The notes below the pieces were generated by a model, which saw nothing but the letters and a program-made list of their open reading frames with translations, did not search any database and was not told where the DNA came from. The position numbers and the translations under genes are program-made. A stretch of 64,000 nucleotides of DNA from an uncultured delta proteobacterium (lineage in GTDB: Bacteria > Desulfobacterota > Binatia > Binatales > Binataceae), in NCBI GenBank assembly GCA_963724765.1, contig CAVRVY010000003.1, positions 384,001 to 448,000 on the forward strand, given 5' to 3'. The number at the start of each line of letters is the position of its first letter. Positions within the stretch are counted from its first letter, which is position 1. Of the stretch, positions 29,218-42,825 are shown piece after piece.

Positions 29218-29637
29218 TTAAGGCGAGACCGGCATTTGCGCGGTGGCGGTGAGAGTCAATTGCTTCGACTGCATGAAGGGAACCTGGATGTTGTACGTGT
29301 AATTGATCACGACCTTGGCATCCAGTTGCGACGGGACATTGAGGTCCTGCGGAAAGCTGACGGTCACATTGCTGGTGGTCAGTCCAAGACTGGGGGCGGC
29401 AGCGATTGCGACCTTCTGTATAGAAGACTCGTCAGCGGCAGTGCTGCCATGGATGAGCGCGAAGCGCGCGCCCTCTCTGGCCGCTGCGCTAATCGAATTA
29501 TAACTAAACACCATGTGGCCCATGAGGAGAATGGCAAAGGTGGTCATTAGTAGCAAGGCAGCGCCGAGCGCAAACTCGACCATCGTTTGGCCCGTTTGAT
29601 AGCAGCACAGACCTATCGATGCGCCGATTCGCTTCAT
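29218..29637 (-). CDS. TadE/TadF-like minor pilin
   Basis: GQTMVEFALG...AAAREGARFA; ATGA overlap with the upstream gene. Confidence 0.88.
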   Translation of the reverse strand: MKRIGASIGLCCYQTGQTMVEFALGAALLLMTTFAILLMGHMVFSYNSISAAAREGARFALIHGSTAADESSIQKVAIAAAPSLGLTTSNVTVSFPQDLNVPSQLDAKVVINYTYNIQVPFMQSKQLTLTATAQMPVSP

Positions 29638-30122
29638 TGTAGGACCTGCATTTCTGCGGTTCTGGTCAGAGTGACCGGGTTCGAGAGCCCCGGGTACCGG
29701 CCGAACGTGGAAAGCGAAGCCGATACGGTGACGGTCACGTAGGTCGCCCCCGGGTTGTCCGAGCAATCGTAGGCCGAGGGGCAGATCGAGACGGTGGTTG
29801 CGGTACTGACGCAGGTGCACTGGCTTATTGTGGGAGAGCCGCTCGTTAAGGAAATGTTTGAGGCGTCATTGAGTACCGCCGACTTGATTCCGCTCGCATT
29901 AGCCGCAGTGGTCAGGCTTTCCGAGCCAAATTGCGCGCCGGCCCGGGCCGCGTCGCTCACGGTAACGTAGGTATAAAATATTCGGCCGAGGTCACACGCC
30001 AGCAGCAACAGGGTAGTCAAAAAGAACATGCTGAACGCGAGCTCGACATAGCTCTGGCCCCTATGCCAACGCTGCAAGGCGAGCCCGAATCGCTTTTGCC
30101 GACGGTATTCTCGCTTATTCAT
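29634..30122 (-). CDS. TadE-like minor pilin
   Basis: RGQSYVELAF...DLGR...DAARAGAQFG; four C-terminal Cys. Confidence 0.85.
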   Translation of the reverse strand: MNKREYRRQKRFGLALQRWHRGQSYVELAFSMFFLTTLLLLACDLGRIFYTYVTVSDAARAGAQFGSESLTTAANASGIKSAVLNDASNISLTSGSPTISQCTCVSTATTVSICPSAYDCSDNPGATYVTVTVSASLSTFGRYPGLSNPVTLTRTAEMQVLQ

Positions 30123-31410
30123 AGATGGTACTGGACTGGAGCGGAGAGGTGCCACCCAGGCTGGTAAAGTCGTCGCAAATGTTGATGTTGGTAGTTCCGG
30201 TTATCTTGAGAGTATCGGCAATCAGCAAAGTATATTCGCTGTTGGGGCCTGTGCAGTTACCAGACAGGTTGGAGCTGCCTTCGTATGTAAGCTCGCTGGT
30301 CGGAAAATAGGGGGCCCCGTCAAACACCGACGAGGAGCTTCCGGTAACGGTGTTGCTCGCCGCTACTCCAGTCGGCGTGATGGTTCTATCCTGAAAAAAC
30401 AGGACTCCCGGAATGCCCCCGCCCGAGCTCGAGGTGGGCGCGCTCAGCGTCACGGTACCGCTGCCGGACATGTCGATGGGTCCGTACCCTCCCGTTCCCG
30501 AAGTGTTGTAGAAAGTCACGCCCGTACCATTAATGGTTGCACTGCCGGTGACCTTCAGGCCCCCGCCTGCGAGGATGTACAGGCCCGAGCCAAAAGTTAT
30601 CGTGCCACTCCCAGTGATGGTGATACCGCCGCAATAGGTGCCGAGAGTCAGGGTGGCGCTGCTCGATGTTCTGTAATTGGTCTGATTGCAGCTTCCAACG
30701 GTAGGTTCCGCCAGCGATGCCAACGGGTCCGGAGCCGGTGCGATGCCGGTAACCGGGGTCGGTGTCCAGGTCGCAGAGCCCAGGTGATCGCCGCCGGCTA
30801 CACCGATGCCCGTTGCAGTGTATGTCCCGCTGCCGGAGCCGTAGAGCGCTTGCGAGTCGCTGGAGTCGACCAGAATGCCGCAGGCCGCGTTGAAGCCACC
30901 GCTGCCGGTCACCCAAAACGATTTGGTTGCGCTAGAGTCCAGCGCGTAGATGCACGCCGGTGAATTTGTGCCGCCGGCGATCGCCTGAGCGCTCACATTC
31001 ATCGAGCTATATCCAAACACCCGCAGAAAATAGATAGATATGGGCGCGGATACCTTGGCTTGGACACAGTCCTCGCCGCTCGTGTTCGGGCAGCTTACCT
31101 GCGTAACAGTGACCGACACGCTATTGGCGCTATTTTTGAAGCCATTGTTGCTAGCCGCGTCGGTGCCGGCCTGCTGGTATCCCGCCGACACAGTCGAGGA
31201 GCCTTGCAGCGCATTGGCGCCTACAATCGCCGCAGCATCTGCCGCTGTCTGCATCTGCCGCCGGGCGACGTACAGAAGACCCCCGTCGACGACCAGCCCG
31301 ACCATGCCAATGAGCGCGACCAACGCCAGTGAGACGAGCACGAATACCTGGCCGCGAGCAGGTCTCGATTTAGACCCGCGCAGGCGCCCCCTCAGCAAGC
31401 TGGCAGCCAT
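30115..31410 (-). CDS. TadG-like pilus-associated protein / adhesin
   Basis: RGQVFVLV...VVDGG...RRQMQTAADAAA, ACIYALD, repeated TGS/GSG beta-rich C-terminus; AGGAGG RBS. Confidence 0.85.
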   Translation of the reverse strand: MAASLLRGRLRGSKSRPARGQVFVLVSLALVALIGMVGLVVDGGLLYVARRQMQTAADAAAIVGANALQGSSTVSAGYQQAGTDAASNNGFKNSANSVSVTVTQVSCPNTSGEDCVQAKVSAPISIYFLRVFGYSSMNVSAQAIAGGTNSPACIYALDSSATKSFWVTGSGGFNAACGILVDSSDSQALYGSGSGTYTATGIGVAGGDHLGSATWTPTPVTGIAPAPDPLASLAEPTVGSCNQTNYRTSSSATLTLGTYCGGITITGSGTITFGSGLYILAGGGLKVTGSATINGTGVTFYNTSGTGGYGPIDMSGSGTVTLSAPTSSSGGGIPGVLFFQDRTITPTGVAASNTVTGSSSSVFDGAPYFPTSELTYEGSSNLSGNCTGPNSEYTLLIADTLKITGTTNINICDDFTSLGGTSPLQSSTIYE

Positions 31411-34625: not shown

Positions 34626-35267
34626 ATGCAGAACCAGTTCGGCATTATTCAGATGATCCAGCAGGGTTACTATGCCACGTACCCGCTGATCGTCATCTCG
34701 ATCGTTTGCCTGGCGGTCATTTTCGAGCGCCTGTGGGCGTTGCGCGGAATCGGCTCCCGTGCCACCAAGACCGCCGACGCGCTGGTCGGCCCGCTGCGCC
34801 AGGGTAAATTCAACGAGGCCCTGCAGCGCACCGAAACCGGCCATACCGCGGCTGACCGCGTCTTCCATACGCTCATCTCGGGCGCCAAGGATCTCGACCG
34901 CGCGCGGCTGGAAGAACTCGACGAGGAGCGGCGCTTTGCCGAGCTGGTCGAGCTCAAGCGCTACATCTGGGTGCTCGCGACTTCGGGCGCCTCGGCCCCG
35001 TTCATCGGGCTGTTCGGCACCGTGGTCGGCATCCTGGTCGCGTTCCAGTCAATGGCGGTGATGGGCACCGGCGGCTTCTCGGTGGTGGCGGCCGGCATCT
35101 CGGAGGCGCTGATTTCAACCGCGTTGGGATTGGCGGTCGCGATCATCGCGGTCATTTTCTACAACTACTTCTCAGTCAAGATCGACAACATCAACGCCGC
35201 GATCCACATCAACGCCGCCCGCCTCATCGACGCTGCGCTGCAAGGGAGACAGGCCGTTGGCGGTTAG
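34626..35267 (+). CDS. MotA/TolQ/ExbB proton channel protein
   Basis: APFIGLFGTVVGI...GISEALISTALGLAVAI; 3 TM. Confidence 0.95.
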   Translation: MQNQFGIIQMIQQGYYATYPLIVISIVCLAVIFERLWALRGIGSRATKTADALVGPLRQGKFNEALQRTETGHTAADRVFHTLISGAKDLDRARLEELDEERRFAELVELKRYIWVLATSGASAPFIGLFGTVVGILVAFQSMAVMGTGGFSVVAAGISEALISTALGLAVAIIAVIFYNYFSVKIDNINAAIHINAARLIDAALQGRQAVGG

Positions 35268-35712
35268 CGGACCCAAAAGCAGCGGCGAGATGTTCTGGCA
35301 GATAAACATCACGCCGCTGACCGACATCTTCCTGGTCCTGCTCATCATCTTCATGGTAACCACCTCGGTCACCATCGAGGCCGCCTCCCACGTCGACCTT
35401 CCGATGGCCGAGAACACTTCGCCCGAAAACAAGGGCGTTATCGTCACCTATACCGCCCAGCACGAGCTGTTCGTCAATTCCAAGGACGTGACCGAGCGCG
35501 ACCTCGAGTCGGCGCTGACCGACGCGCTGACCCGGGTCGATTCCAAGGTGGTGATTTTCCAGGGCGACGAGAAAGTCCTGCTGGGTGACATGATCCGGAT
35601 CCTGCAAATCGCCAAGTTGGCCGGCGCCCAGCAGATAGCGATCGCGGCCAAGCACGTCTCGCCGGGACAGTTCCAGCGCCTGCAAACCGGGCCGGGCGCG
35701 ACCGGCGGTTGA
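35257..35712 (+). CDS. ExbD/TolR family protein (copy 1)
   Basis: INITPLTDIFLVLLIIFMV with the conserved Asp; VDLP; QGDEKV. Confidence 0.93.
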   Translation: MAVSGPKSSGEMFWQINITPLTDIFLVLLIIFMVTTSVTIEAASHVDLPMAENTSPENKGVIVTYTAQHELFVNSKDVTERDLESALTDALTRVDSKVVIFQGDEKVLLGDMIRILQIAKLAGAQQIAIAAKHVSPGQFQRLQTGPGATGG

Positions 35713-35753
35713 CCCCGGCAAACGAGGCCGGAGCAAGAGGTTAGAACCAGTTC

Positions 35754-36248
35754 ATGGCGATAAGCCCTAATCAAAGCGGCGGTGTTTTCGCCGACATCAA
35801 CATCACGCCGCTGACCGATATCTTTCTGGTCCTGCTCATCATCTTTATGGTTGCAACCGCGATCACCATCGAGTCCGCCGCCCACGTCGACTTGCCCAAA
35901 GTTCAGTCACAGGCGACCACCGACAAACCCAAGGGCGTGGCGGTGATGTACACCGCGGACCATCGCATCTTCGTCAACCAGGGTGAGGTGAATGAGCAAA
36001 CGCTGCCGGCGGCGCTCCACGACGCTATCGCCAAGGATCCCGACAAGCTGGTGGTGTTCCAGGGAGACCCGGCGGTGATCTTGGCCGACATGGTCCGCAT
36101 CCTCGACATCGCCAAAACGGCGGGCGCCCAGCAAATCGCGATCGCGGTGGCCAAGCTGCCGGGCGGCGGTGGCGGCGGCGAGACGGGGGAGCCGTCCCTC
36201 CCCAGCGGACCGGTGGTGCCGCCGGAACCCGCTACCGGAGGACCCTGA
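35754..36248 (+). CDS. ExbD/TolR family protein (copy 2)
   Basis: Identical TM motif INITPLTDIFLVLLIIFMV; QGDPAV; Gly/Pro-rich tail. Confidence 0.93.
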   Translation: MAISPNQSGGVFADINITPLTDIFLVLLIIFMVATAITIESAAHVDLPKVQSQATTDKPKGVAVMYTADHRIFVNQGEVNEQTLPAALHDAIAKDPDKLVVFQGDPAVILADMVRILDIAKTAGAQQIAIAVAKLPGGGGGGETGEPSLPSGPVVPPEPATGGP

Positions 36249-36367
36249 CTTTAGTTGTACCGTCACCGAGAGCACAATATTAAAGGGCGCCCTCAGGCGC
36301 ATAACTGGAGCATGGGCGCCGCCTTTCGGGGGATCAGGGCCGGGGCCGTAACAGCAAAGGGCATCGC

Positions 36368-37582
36368 GTGACCGTCGCGGAAGAAATCGGCCTGCTTGCG
36401 GTCTCGGTAGTCGTTGTAGCGATCGGGCTGTTCTGGATCGCCACGCGCGCGCATCTGGATGAGGAAGATCCGGAAAAGGAAAAGCCCGGCTTCAAACATG
36501 GCCTGCGCCAGGGTCTGCGCTTCCTGCTTGGCCCGTTCCCACTTTCCATTGGTCTGCACGTCGTGGTCCTGCTCTTCCTGCTCTTCGCCGTGCACATGGA
36601 GACCGGCCAGAACTTCATTCCGATAAGCCTCCAGGCCGGTGGCGGCGGCGGCCAGACCAAACCCGGCGAAGACACCAACCTGCCCGAGATGCAGATGCCT
36701 GAGCTGCAGGCGCTGCCGATGGAGAAGCCCAAGCAGATCGACGCTTACGCGCGTGAGGCCGTCGTTACCGCTAACAACTACGTGCGCTCGGCGAACAGTG
36801 GAATCGGAATCGGCCGCGGCGGCGGCATAGGCTCGGGCTACGGCCAGGGCATCGGCGGCGGGTTCGGCGGCTTCATCAGCGGCCTGCGGCGCACCGGTCT
36901 CGACGTCGTGATCGTCATCGACGGGACGGGCTCGATGCGCCTGGTGATCGACGACGTAAAGAACAAGATGCGCCAGTTGATGCTCGCGATCCATGGGCTG
37001 GTGCCGACCGCGCGCGTGGGGATCATCGTCTTCGGCGGACGCGGCGAGCAGGTGCAAATGCTGCCGCTTACCACTTCGCCCGGCGCGGTGGTCCAGTTCC
37101 TGGGCGGCATCCAGGCTCGCAATGGCGGCGAATGGCAGGAAGACACGCTGGGCGCGGTCCGCATGGCGGTCGACAACATGGGATGGCGCTCGTACGCCAA
37201 GAAAGTGATCGTGCTGGTCGGCGACACGCCGCCGTTCAAGGAGGATTTCGATCCGGTCCTCCAATTCATCCGCCAGTTCCACGCTGAGAACGGAACCTTC
37301 AACACGGTCGACCTGACCGTCGAGGAGCACGAGCGCTTCATCAAACAGTGGCAGAGCTTCAGCGGGCCAGTGCCGGTGAGCGCCTCCTCCCTGCCGGAGT
37401 TCTACCTCGAAACCCAGGCGGCTTATCAGGCGATGGCGCGGGCGGGCGGCGGAACATGGCGCAGTCTGACCAAGGACGAGCACATCAACCAGCAGGTGTT
37501 GATCCTGGCATTCGGCGAGCAGTGGCGCTCCGAGGTCGCCGCGTTCGGCCGAGGCATCAGATCCACCAACGCCGACCCGTAG
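36368..37582 (+). CDS. Membrane-anchored vWA (MIDAS) protein with a TonB/TolA-like SxxxH helix
   Basis: Two N-terminal TMs, the second LSIGLHVVVLLFLL; Pro/Gly linker; LDVVIVIDGTGSM (MIDAS), GGEWQED, VLVGDTPP. Confidence 0.85.
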   Translation: MTVAEEIGLLAVSVVVVAIGLFWIATRAHLDEEDPEKEKPGFKHGLRQGLRFLLGPFPLSIGLHVVVLLFLLFAVHMETGQNFIPISLQAGGGGGQTKPGEDTNLPEMQMPELQALPMEKPKQIDAYAREAVVTANNYVRSANSGIGIGRGGGIGSGYGQGIGGGFGGFISGLRRTGLDVVIVIDGTGSMRLVIDDVKNKMRQLMLAIHGLVPTARVGIIVFGGRGEQVQMLPLTTSPGAVVQFLGGIQARNGGEWQEDTLGAVRMAVDNMGWRSYAKKVIVLVGDTPPFKEDFDPVLQFIRQFHAENGTFNTVDLTVEEHERFIKQWQSFSGPVPVSASSLPEFYLETQAAYQAMARAGGGTWRSLTKDEHINQQVLILAFGEQWRSEVAAFGRGIRSTNADP

Positions 37583-38000: not shown

Positions 38001-38531
38001 ATGCGAAAGTTCTCTATTGCACTGTTCGCGGTCGCGGCCCTGGCCGTGACACTGTCGGCGGCGCCCAGCGCGCGCGCACAAGATAAAGCGCCGACAAAGA
38101 GCACCACCAAGATCGGCTATTTGAGCTGTCACGTCGCCAGCGGCTGGGGATTCATCTTCGGATCGTCGCGTAAGCTGCAATGCGTCTACACTCCGGCGGC
38201 AAAGGGCAAGAAAATCGAGGACTACAGCGGTTCGATCAGCAAGTTCGGAGCCGACATCGGCTACCTGCAATCTGGCGTAATCCTATGGACGGTGCTGGCG
38301 CCGGCGGTAAAGATCTCGAGCCCAGCCGGTTTGCTCGCTGGCCACTACGGCGGAGCGACCGCTAGCGCGACTCTCGGACTCGGCGTCGGCGGCAACCTGC
38401 TGGTCGGCGGAATGGATGGATCGATTTCGCTGCAGCCGCTCAGCATCGAGGGCACCACGGGCCTTAACGTCGCAGCGGGCGTGGCGATGCTGGATCTCAA
38501 GTTCGAGTCTGTATCAGGCGTCAAGCAATAG
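38001..38531 (+). CDS. DUF992-like secreted protein
   Basis: Signal peptide; GYLSC..GWGFIFGSSRKLQC..YSGSISKFGADIG..LAGHYGG..ISLQPLSIEG; GAGGAG RBS. Confidence 0.85.
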   Translation: MRKFSIALFAVAALAVTLSAAPSARAQDKAPTKSTTKIGYLSCHVASGWGFIFGSSRKLQCVYTPAAKGKKIEDYSGSISKFGADIGYLQSGVILWTVLAPAVKISSPAGLLAGHYGGATASATLGLGVGGNLLVGGMDGSISLQPLSIEGTTGLNVAAGVAMLDLKFESVSGVKQ

Positions 38532-41955: not shown

Positions 41956-42825
41956 CTACTCGGGGAAGATCGCCTTGACCACTTCGTCGATCGCGCGCTT
42001 GCTGTCGGCCTCGTCGGTGAGCGACCAGGTCACGGCGACGGTCGCGGCGCGGCGCGGCGCGATTCCCTGGCGGATAAGCTCGCCGGCGTAGATCAGGAGC
42101 CGGGTCGAGACGCCTTCTTCGAGGCCCGAGGCCTTGAGGTTGCGCACCTTCTCGCCCAGCACCGCGAGCTGCATCGCCATGTCGCGGTCGACACCCGCCT
42201 CGTGCTCGATGATCTCGACTTCCTTGTCGGCCGGCGGATAGTTGAACTCGATAGTGACGAAGCGCTGGCGCGTGGAGTGCTTGAGATTTTTCTGGATGCT
42301 CTGGTAGCCGGGATTGTACGAGATCACCAGCAGGAAGCCGACGTGCGCCTCCAGCGTCTCGCCGCGCTTTTCGACCGGCAGGATGCGGCGATGGTCGGAG
42401 AGCGGATGGATCAGCACGGTGGTGTCCTTGCGCGCTTCGACGATCTCGTCGAGGTAGCAGAGCGCGCCGCGCCGCACCGCCTGGGTCAGCGGCCCGTCGA
42501 TCCACACCGTCTCGTCGGCCTGGATAAGGTAGCGGCCGACCAGGTCGCTGCCGGTCAGATCCTCGTGGCAGGCGACGGTGATGAGTTCGGTGGGACCATC
42601 GGGAAGACCCGCGAGGCGATGGGCCATGTGCTCGACGAAGCGGGTCTTGCCGCAGCCGGTGGGTCCCTTGAGCAATACCGGCAGACGCGCTTTGTAAGCG
42701 GCCTCGAAAATTTCGACCTCGTCACCGATCGGGAGGTAATAGGGGGCGTTATGCGGGTCGAGATGGCGGACTTCGGGCCCTTCGGCCTGCATCCTGGTAT
42801 CGAACTTTTTCAACTCAATCGACAT
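41956..42825 (-). CDS. CbbQ/NirQ/NorQ (MoxR-class) AAA+ ATPase
   Basis: [54 protein letters not shown]. Confidence 0.93.

Follow-up and report, generated by a model that had tools for sequence, protein, structure and literature searches.

In a 64,000-nucleotide stretch of an uncultured member of the Binataceae (contig CAVRVY010000003.1, positions 384,001 to 448,000; hereafter the window), we analysed a four-gene operon that encodes an ExbB/TolQ-like protein, two ExbD/TolR paralogs and a membrane protein ending in a vWA (von Willebrand factor A) domain. The evidence supports reading the fourth protein, from its sequence, as a TonB/TolA-like stator-coupled membrane protein with a periplasmic vWA head; we call it the vWA transducer. 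We regard it as very likely that this protein works with the stator encoded beside it, and as fairly probable that the operon is a third, dedicated 5:2-type proton motive force (PMF) stator of this genome with its own vWA transducer. That the protein transmits force to a ligand bound through its metal ion-dependent adhesion site (MIDAS) has about an even chance of being right. The architecture is not new, and an earlier description is among the grounds that the initial annotation of this DNA had listed against its own reading: it was published in 2025 as the "vWA force transducer" class, with structure predictions as the only evidence in the main text (Williams-Jones et al. 2025, Mol Biol Evol 42:msaf138, PMC12204202). 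New in relation to that main text are an additional N-terminal helix in a Binataceae clade, the move of a tetratricopeptide repeat (TPR) gene to another part of the genome, an orphan paralog, so that several transducers may use one stator, and anti-sigma fusions in sister lineages. The class extends into the Binatia, an abundant uncultured soil lineage, and the docking motif and the linkage to a motor hold over deep divergence. The value of the locus is that of a lead and not of a discovery.

The operon and the parts of the vWA transducer (residue numbers are those of the transducer) are as follows.

34626-37582, forward strand: four-gene operon of four tightly spaced open reading frames (ORFs)
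34626..35267, forward strand: exbB/tolQ-like gene 1 (213 amino acids, aa); Pfam PF01618 MotA_ExbB, E 1.5e-28, 99.5 bits against a cut-off of 22.9
35257..35712, forward strand: exbD/tolR paralog 1, gene 2 (151 aa); PF02472, E 1.3e-22, 80.7 bits against a cut-off of 25.4
35754..36248, forward strand: exbD/tolR paralog 2, gene 3 (164 aa); PF02472, E 4.6e-24, 85.4 bits against a cut-off of 25.4
36368..37582, forward strand: vWA transducer ORF, gene 4 (404 aa, GTG start); VWA_2, E 1.7e-10
36386..36445, forward strand: first transmembrane helix, TM1 (residues 7-26), the extra N-terminal helix; hydrophobic in 18/18 aligned Binataceae-type proteins
36524..36595, forward strand: second transmembrane helix, TM2 (residues 53-76), with S60 (36545), H64 (36557) and L71, the S-x3-H-x6-L of the SHLS motif
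36614..36634, forward strand: motor-box/D-box-like strand (residues 83-89), alternating hydrophobics right after TM2
36653..36859, forward strand: linker (residues 96-164), a Pro/Glu-rich part and then a Gly-rich segment
36860..37573, forward strand: vWA domain (residues 165-402), from Pfam VWA_2 (residues 180-286), AlphaFold2 (AF2) and Foldseek
36920-36934, forward strand: MIDAS D185-G-T187-G-S189 (DGTGS, residues 185-189), plus D286

The vWA transducer and its stator

TM2 is presumed from its sequence to be the docking helix for ExbB. The Ser at 36545 and the His at 36557 that the initial annotation had placed in the second helix are exactly S60 and H64, and none of S60, H64 and L71 varies among 18 aligned Binataceae-type proteins. 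We took the definition and the contacts of the SHLS motif from PMC12215075, which, in its part on the cryo-EM structures of the E. coli Ton and Tol motors, describes the Ser and His of TonB/TolA as touching a Ser and a Trp on TM1 of ExbB/TolQ, and this Trp as contacting a Pro on TM3. Right after TM2, the pattern of the motor-box-like strand is nearly invariant in the 18 orthologs and is followed by an invariant Gly run (G92-G94); an alternating strand is found at the same place in the alignment of distant relatives, and the AF2 monomer model predicts no strand at residues 83-89. The TonB D-box is described in the cited part of Loll et al. 2024 (PMC10907165) as a short, proline-flanked strand after the membrane anchor, alternating between hydrophobic and hydrophilic residues, that an ExbD dimer captures by strand addition. 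By analogy, residues 83-89 may be captured by the ExbD1/ExbD2 pair.

The linker is Pro/Glu-rich and Gly-rich, as initially annotated, with P106, E107 and P111 invariant and conserved Gly positions among the 18 proteins. Behind it we are confident, from the AF2 model, of a true vWA fold with MIDAS residues. The model (47 homologs, mean predicted local distance difference test score, pLDDT, 81) has helices at residues 2-29 and 56-79 and pLDDT <50 at residues 88-98 and 143-163; in the vWA domain (~165-402) pLDDT is >90 over most of residues 170-400. The top Foldseek matches of the domain in the Protein Data Bank (PDB) are the Rpn10 vWA domain, TFIIH p44/Ssl1, integrin alpha-I and BatB (E ~3e-9 to 1e-7). 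Pfam finds no TonB_C on the protein, and together with the VWA_2 and fold matches this agrees with the earlier assignment of the C-terminus as a vWA domain with DGTGS at 36920-36934 in place of TonB_C. D185, T187, G253 and E258 are invariant in a broad homolog alignment, S189 is invariant or nearly so, and D286 is invariant in the 18 orthologs.

The topology was read from the sequence by the positive-inside rule, as counts of Lys plus Arg (K+R) per segment. In the window protein the N-tail has 0, the loop between TM1 and TM2 has 6 and the 20 residues after TM2 have 0, in line with the initial suggestion that a basic stretch before TM2 makes the vWA domain periplasmic. The same pattern is seen in 18/18 Binataceae-type two-helix proteins, with means of 0.5 in the N-tail, 7.3 in the loop (28-40 residues) and 1.5 in the 20 residues past TM2. 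Because the loop is basic, the rule would place it in the cytoplasm and both ends outside, and thus the vWA domain in the periplasm; TM1 and TM2 are predicted to form a hairpin with the N-tail outside the cell membrane. Ahead of their one helix the 42 single-helix relatives carry 3.0 K+R and behind it 1.76, the orientation of TonB.

The stator genes are closely packed: genes 1 and 2 overlap by 11 nt, and gaps of 41 and 119 nt precede genes 3 and 4. Their Pfam matches agree with the initial calls of one exbB/tolQ and two exbD/tolR genes with the membrane Asp, which is conserved as Asp23 of ExbD1 (nt 35323-35325) in 17/17 orthologs and as Asp22 of ExbD2 (nt 35817-35819) in 15/15. The two ExbD paralogs are ~57-60% identical and cross-match in tblastn. 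In a 17-row ExbB/TolQ alignment, G128, L129, G131, T132, T165 and G168 of gene 1 are invariant, among them the pore-lining Thr positions T132 and T165, and S25 is present in 16 of the 17 rows. The nearest NCBIfam model is TolQ for gene 1 (TIGR02796, E 4.2e-32, 111.7 bits against a cut-off of 221; TIGR02797 gives 81.8 against 206.2) and TolR for genes 2 and 3, under its equivalog cut-off. Since all three genes fall far under the equivalog cut-offs, they would form a separate stator subfamily; judged by its sequence, gene 1 belongs to a distinct subfamily that is neither canonical TolQ nor ExbB, and its product presumably assembles as a pentamer. ExbD2, and not ExbD1, ends in a Gly/Pro-rich tail of ~30 residues (residues 135-164, window 36157-36248) that varies in length among ExbD2 orthologs.

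Conservation of the docking motif and the gene order

Among 1.84 billion cluster representatives, searched exhaustively, 2294 are homologs of the vWA transducer at E<=1e-3 and 581 at E<=1e-10; a separate homolog search yielded 662 at E<=1e-3, the closest of them named Candidatus Binataceae. The homologs include one metagenome-assembled genome each of Gammaproteobacteria and Phycisphaerae, from phyla listed in the main text of Williams-Jones et al. 2025. The docking motif, first recognized in the single window sequence, is conserved among these homologs. We surveyed the 150 best representatives and judged the 92 in which the family MIDAS strand is present and preceded by at least 100 residues; the other 58 are fragments or were missed by the pattern, and a few full-length ones among them carry SxxxH. 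SxxxH lies within a hydrophobic segment in 78 of the 92, five have the His only (Ala or Val at the Ser position) and nine have neither, so that the His is kept in 83/92. The Ser lies a median of 141 residues ahead of the MIDAS Asp.

The four-gene order recurs as well. Among 24 species-genome loci, 22 have upstream DNA, and 21 of these 22 have exbB-exbD1-exbD2 directly before the vWA gene (L020 is the exception). All four ORFs, tightly spaced, are carried by 42 loci. A metagenome scan, made with a 10-sequence alignment and ranked by its first sequence, yielded Binataceae-like loci only, 75 in total; at least 2 kb of upstream DNA is present in 27, of which 18 have the stator. Across 43 loci, including the window, no fifth co-oriented conserved gene was found; the remaining conserved neighbours are opposite-strand housekeeping genes.

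We then used a single-helix relative that is ~32% identical to the window protein (P0145) as query against 301 genomes of the phylum and found the family in 20 of them, among these eight of the nine further genomes that belong to the class. We fetched 14 regions around phylum homologs (~30-37% identical), and 12 contain exbB and exbD; the two regions that lack a stator are weak matches to ~695-aa proteins. The gene orders in these relatives are exbB-exbD-vWA-TPR, vWA-exbB-exbD-exbD-TPR, and vWA followed after 2-3 genes by exbB-exbD(-exbD). The linkage of vWA gene and stator thus persists through rearrangement, which argues for a functional unit and is the strongest comparative argument. Retention of the SxxxH motif and of the gene order far past close relatives points, at the level of sequence, to more than chance. 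In two phylum loci the vWA gene has an unusual form: at L136:3921-7298 (G076) it is part of one 1125-aa ORF that runs past the vWA domain, a fusion or an artefact of ORF calling, and at L145:6008-7183 (G289), beside exbB-exbD, it is broken into three short ORFs and is probably frameshifted or decaying.

The same comparisons bear on whether the vWA protein is a chance neighbour, a BatA/BatB-like protein unrelated to a stator whose TonB or TolA is encoded at another site. Only three MotA/ExbB genes are present in this genome (5.4 Mb, 97% complete). Besides the one in the window, one lies in a tolQ-tolR-tolA-tolB cluster and one in an exbB-exbD-tonB cluster; as both of these stators have tolA or tonB clusters of their own, the window stator is left with no other transducer nearby. 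TonB_C genes exist elsewhere in the genome, and the one at C3:851931 has no stator beside it, which would suit a chance neighbour, as would the resemblance of the fold to BatB. The linkage held across rearranged orders in distant relatives speaks against it, as does the conservation of SxxxH in a family that would have no other reason to keep it. Bat operons have vWA and TPR genes together with MoxR and DUF58 genes and no stator, and the SxxxH docking helix is, to our knowledge, not a Bat feature. BatA and BatB are also membrane-anchored vWA proteins, and the fold matches include BatB (3ibs) and the B. fragilis aerotolerance protein (4jdu); the window operon, with just four genes, differs in having no MoxR or DUF58 gene, and the nearest AAA gene is 4.4 kb off on the opposite strand. 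We consider a chance association highly improbable. In the canonical exbB-exbD-tonB cluster of this genome, the TonB (L002:994-1734, contig C1, ~1.263 Mb) has Ser-x3-Trp instead of Ser-x3-His, and the ExbB has Gly at the conserved Ser position.

Proposed mechanism and its alternatives

ExbB/TolQ/MotA-type 5:2 motors have a handful of known jobs: Ton uptake, Tol-Pal envelope maintenance, flagellar rotation, gliding and some defence systems. If our reading is true, a transducer with a metal-dependent adhesion domain would be a further job for these proton motors. We infer a mechanism that runs from docking, ExbD capture and heterodimer formation to metal-dependent ligand binding, force transmission and a candidate ligand. 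The stator would be an ExbB/TolQ-like pentamer with a probable ExbD1/ExbD2 heterodimer. The transducer would be anchored by its helical hairpin, N-tail outside and basic loop in the cytoplasm, with TM2 docked at the edge of the ExbB pentamer, close to its Ser25, and the strand right after TM2 captured by the periplasmic domains of both ExbD paralogs, like the TonB D-box. The linker (~75 residues) would hold the vWA domain in the periplasm, where it would bind a partner by way of the MIDAS metal site; protons flowing through the stator would cause it to pull on or remodel this partner. The best candidate would be a secreted TPR protein of ~810-860 aa that is linked to the cluster in related lineages and unlinked in the window genome.

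Williams-Jones et al. 2025 reached the same model for this architecture independently, with AlphaFold3 models in which, according to the main text, the helix occupies the site of TonB/TolA by way of the conserved His. The initial annotation, which had read the sequence correctly and whose named elements all lie where it placed them, had arrived at that model too. Their class is defined there by a transmembrane helix with the SHLS motif and conserved His, a motor box, a disordered domain II of ~100 residues and a vWA C-terminus; its genes accompany one tolQ-like and two distinct tolR-like genes, an uncharacterised TPR gene lies beside the clusters, and the taxa named are Proteobacteria, Planctomycetes, Verrucomicrobia, Bacteroidetes and Rhodothermaeota, with a seed from Tichowtungia aerotolerans. 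The window protein shares the SHLS-type helix, the motor box, the linker, the vWA fold and the tolQ-like gene with two tolR-like genes, and differs by its extra N-terminal helix. Relatives here, like those in the paper, have a TPR gene with the cluster, and in the window genome it is unlinked. Stator-less paralogs, copies fused to anti-sigma domains and the Binatia lineage are not mentioned in the main text of that paper, in which "Binat" and "sigma" have zero occurrences. It is the only description of the vWA force-transducer architecture that our literature search found, and nothing found tied the Binatia to vWA force transducers.

In most clusters of the phylum the adjoining gene encodes a secreted protein of 756-859 aa, and 5 of 8 such large neighbours that we scanned match TPR families. 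The window genome has a TPR homolog on another contig (C2:122871-125024; L149:8614-11049), 811 aa long, with a signal-like N-terminus, 27% identity (E 2.2e-37) and a TPR Pfam match. In the reverse search with this protein, the best match in each of four same-class genomes is the TPR gene beside the vWA/stator cluster. By this sequence evidence it would be the ortholog of the cluster-linked TPR protein, and it is our best candidate for a ligand or adaptor of the vWA domain. Its gene lies downstream of histidine-kinase-like and KaiC-like genes (named by eye), near a sigma-54-type response regulator.

The TPR gene also bears on a role as stator accessory or anchor, in which the vWA protein would tether or regulate ExbB/ExbD, for instance to a TPR scaffold, in a MotB-like or CpoB-like manner and with no force transmitted. 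The co-occurrence of the TPR gene with the cluster in relatives would fit such a role, as would the short linker, the presence of BatB among the fold matches and the pairing of vWA and TPR genes in the Bat operon mentioned above. An SxxxH helix and a motor box are, however, hallmarks of a transduced partner such as TonB or TolA and not of an anchor, and ExbD already supplies the periplasmic part of the stator; we find an anchor quite unlikely.

An orphan vWA paralog of 412 aa and 49% identity is encoded on another contig (C4:113816-114952; L029:1489-2727, reverse strand). It keeps both helices and SxxxH, and its MIDAS reads DDTGT. By analogy with multi-TonB genomes, two or more transducers may share a stator. 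A 219-aa secreted-looking ORF without a Pfam match overlaps the end of this paralog.

The comparison with TonB and TolA rests on the shared Ser-x3-His(-x6-Leu) helix, the strand motor box after the helix, the flexible linker, the globular periplasmic head and the exbB/exbD-type genes. It breaks down at the head, which is a vWA domain and not TonB_C or TolA domain III, and at the surroundings: as initially noted, no TonB-dependent receptor, tolB or pal lies within ~5 kb of the operon. Several further observations weigh against a force-transmitting partner of this stator. TonB and TolA have one helix and nothing that corresponds to the extra TM1, and the fourth SHLS position is Val75, not Ser. 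In an alignment to the PDB chains of TolQ and ExbB, Ser25 of the window ExbB aligns with E. coli TolQ Ser28, and the other two of the three contact residues are changed (TolQ Trp32 to Leu29, ExbB Pro190 to Ile174), so that neither the Trp nor the Pro of the TonB/TolA contact network is found in this ExbB. Across 15 vWA-linked ExbBs from several families the Ser is kept in 15/15 and the Trp position is aliphatic in 15/15; the contact Pro is lost solely within the class Binatia. Ser, Trp and Pro are all present in the TolQ of the same genome. The vWA-transducer/ExbB interface thus probably differs from the one that TonB or TolA forms.

Docking on ExbB would follow from motifs alone, and the positive-inside rule is the one line of evidence for the topology. 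At the MIDAS, a putative metal- and ligand-binding site, Thr takes the place of the first Ser throughout the family, and a conserved acidic Gly-rich loop (G253, G254, E255, E258) stands where the MIDAS Thr loop usually lies. The main text of PMC12204202 states that the function of the class is unknown and that no deletion phenotype is on record. The short linker would need near-full extension to reach the outer membrane. The TPR gene is absent from the window operon and from all 43 Binataceae-type loci compared, and 3 of the 8 large neighbouring proteins scanned have no Pfam TPR match. No exbB or exbD lies near the orphan paralog, and none lies near 9 of the 27 metagenome loci with sufficient upstream DNA.

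In the Myxococcus AglR/AglQ/AglS motor, one TolQ/ExbB-like and two TolR/ExbD-like subunits drive TonB-like Glt proteins that carry the force, and the gliding adhesin CglB is an outer-membrane lipoprotein. The likeness to this motor pointed out in the initial annotation stands for the layout of one TolQ-like and two TolR-like subunits and goes no further. Both machines include a vWA protein, there the outer-membrane CglB and not, as in the window, an inner-membrane transducer, and no glt genes lie by the cluster. A gliding or surface-motility motor of this type, in which the stator would drive an adhesion complex with the vWA head as adhesin link, is an idea raised in the main text of PMC12204202, and it would be in keeping with the shared layout and with the description of CglB as a vWA protein in the cited part of PMC9946355. 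Glt-like genes are absent beside the cluster in all 43 loci, where the conserved neighbours are the opposite-strand housekeeping genes, and other clades of the vWA transducer family have a single exbD, which makes a gliding motor improbable.

Anti-sigma-like fused copies and the genes around the operon

In metagenomes of sister lineages we found 16 copies in which TM1 is replaced by a ~110-residue N-terminal Cys...HxxxCxxC domain, and the SxxxH helix, motor box, linker and vWA domain are kept. Nine have at least 2 kb of upstream DNA and none of these (0/9) has a stator near, and they make up all of the stator-less loci among the 27 of the metagenome scan; the other seven have too little upstream DNA to judge. 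The following metagenome loci have no stator within 2-7 kb.

L044:6665-8134, L063:5221-6690, L070:4430-5845 and L075:6662-8080: fused copies
L078:6101-7522, L073:6659-8122 and L060:2030-3478: fused copies

The gene directly upstream of the fused copies encodes an extracytoplasmic function (ECF)-type sigma factor (NCBIfam sigma70-ECF, 52.0 and 45.9 bits against a cut-off of 42.9), and the gene directly after them encodes a further two-helix vWA paralog of 391-429 aa. The N-terminal domain matches PDB 3hug_B with E 0.058 and the RsrA model with E 9e-4, under its cut-off; Pfam finds no match on the N-terminus of the fused copies alone, and one representative (P0109) carries a precomputed PF13490 label. 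The motif, the position behind a sigma gene, this label and the weak matches suggest, tentatively, an anti-sigma-like domain. An anti-sigma factor with a vWA domain has been described for the ECF289 type, as DUF3520 plus vWA (YfbK-like), in the cited part of Casas-Pastor et al. 2021 (PMC7826278), where no TonB-like helix is reported; the fused copies here differ in keeping the SxxxH helix and motor box.

In a quick tree the fused copies fall into at least four well-supported groups, each beside stator-linked copies on short branches. This scatter may reflect repeated duplication or gene conversion within a genome. One genome of the same family (G204) contains a copy linked to the stator, two copies in tandem and a fragment; contigs break inside the copies, and there is just one vWA-type exbB. 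The window genome itself has no fused copy.

These copies would speak for a signalling device, in which the vWA head would sense a periplasmic or envelope ligand and the contact with the stator would gate or report, as a mechanosensor or checkpoint, with no work done at the outer membrane. Sister Binataceae do fuse the same helix, motor box and vWA module to the HxxxCxxC domain behind a sigma gene that passes the sigma70-ECF cut-off, and fused and stator-linked copies adjoin on very short branches. The window protein, however, carries no output domain on the cytoplasmic side, support for the anti-sigma assignment is weak, and a dedicated stator with two ExbD paralogs would be a costly means for mere sensing. 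We judge a pure signalling role unlikely for the window operon and retain the force-transmitting transducer as the preferred reading.

A more novel reading is speculative and unlikely: the helix, motor box and vWA module would be a proton-powered mechanosensor common to several receptors in a cell, one ExbB-ExbD1-ExbD2 stator would serve the hairpin form, the orphan paralogs and the anti-sigma form of sister lineages, and pulling on the ligand-bound head would directly release sigma. If that were true, it would be force-gated transmembrane signalling without a TonB-dependent receptor, and fused and stator-linked copies would be nearly identical because selection or gene conversion keeps them matched to a common stator and ligand. 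Through the anti-sigma fusions, which are the most promising lead, the activity of the machine could be read out at the level of transcription.

The upstream neighbours of the operon are NUDIX, CoA-binding, low-molecular-weight phosphatase and SDR genes, all on the opposite strand; the downstream neighbours are a DUF992 gene, an amino-acid permease, an SDR, a beta-eliminating lyase and a CbbQ-type AAA gene, of which all but DUF992 are on the opposite strand. The DUF992 protein (38001-38531, forward strand) has a signal-peptide-like start and begins 419 nt past the vWA gene. It was rejected as a fifth member, as it follows the cluster in close relatives only (at least 89% identity) and not among the neighbours conserved over the 43 loci. 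The CbbQ/NorQ-type AAA+ gene (41956-42825, reverse strand; AAA_5 and CbbQ_C) has cysS and the beta-eliminating lyase as neighbours and lacks the adjoining vWA partner gene usual for such ATPases. As a MoxR-like partner of the window vWA domain it was set aside: its product is cytoplasmic, and the gene is on the opposite strand, 4.4 kb off and present in only 16/43 loci. None of the four operon proteins matches a PADLOC defence model (for example Zorya-type stators) at E<=0.01, and we dropped the reading as an anti-phage defence stator.

Soil metatranscriptome contigs that are 90-95% identical cover parts of all four genes, and a 622-nt contig bridges the exbB/exbD1 junction. The contigs come from two soil runs in which the share of sampled words is small (0.06), and being mostly 90-95% alike they derive from relatives, with carry-over of DNA possible; they are a weak hint that the operon is expressed, and stretches that they leave uncovered carry no weight. 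TadE-like and TadG-like genes of Flp-pilus assembly (Tad, Tad_C) lie at 29634-31410 on the reverse strand, 3 kb upstream of the cluster.

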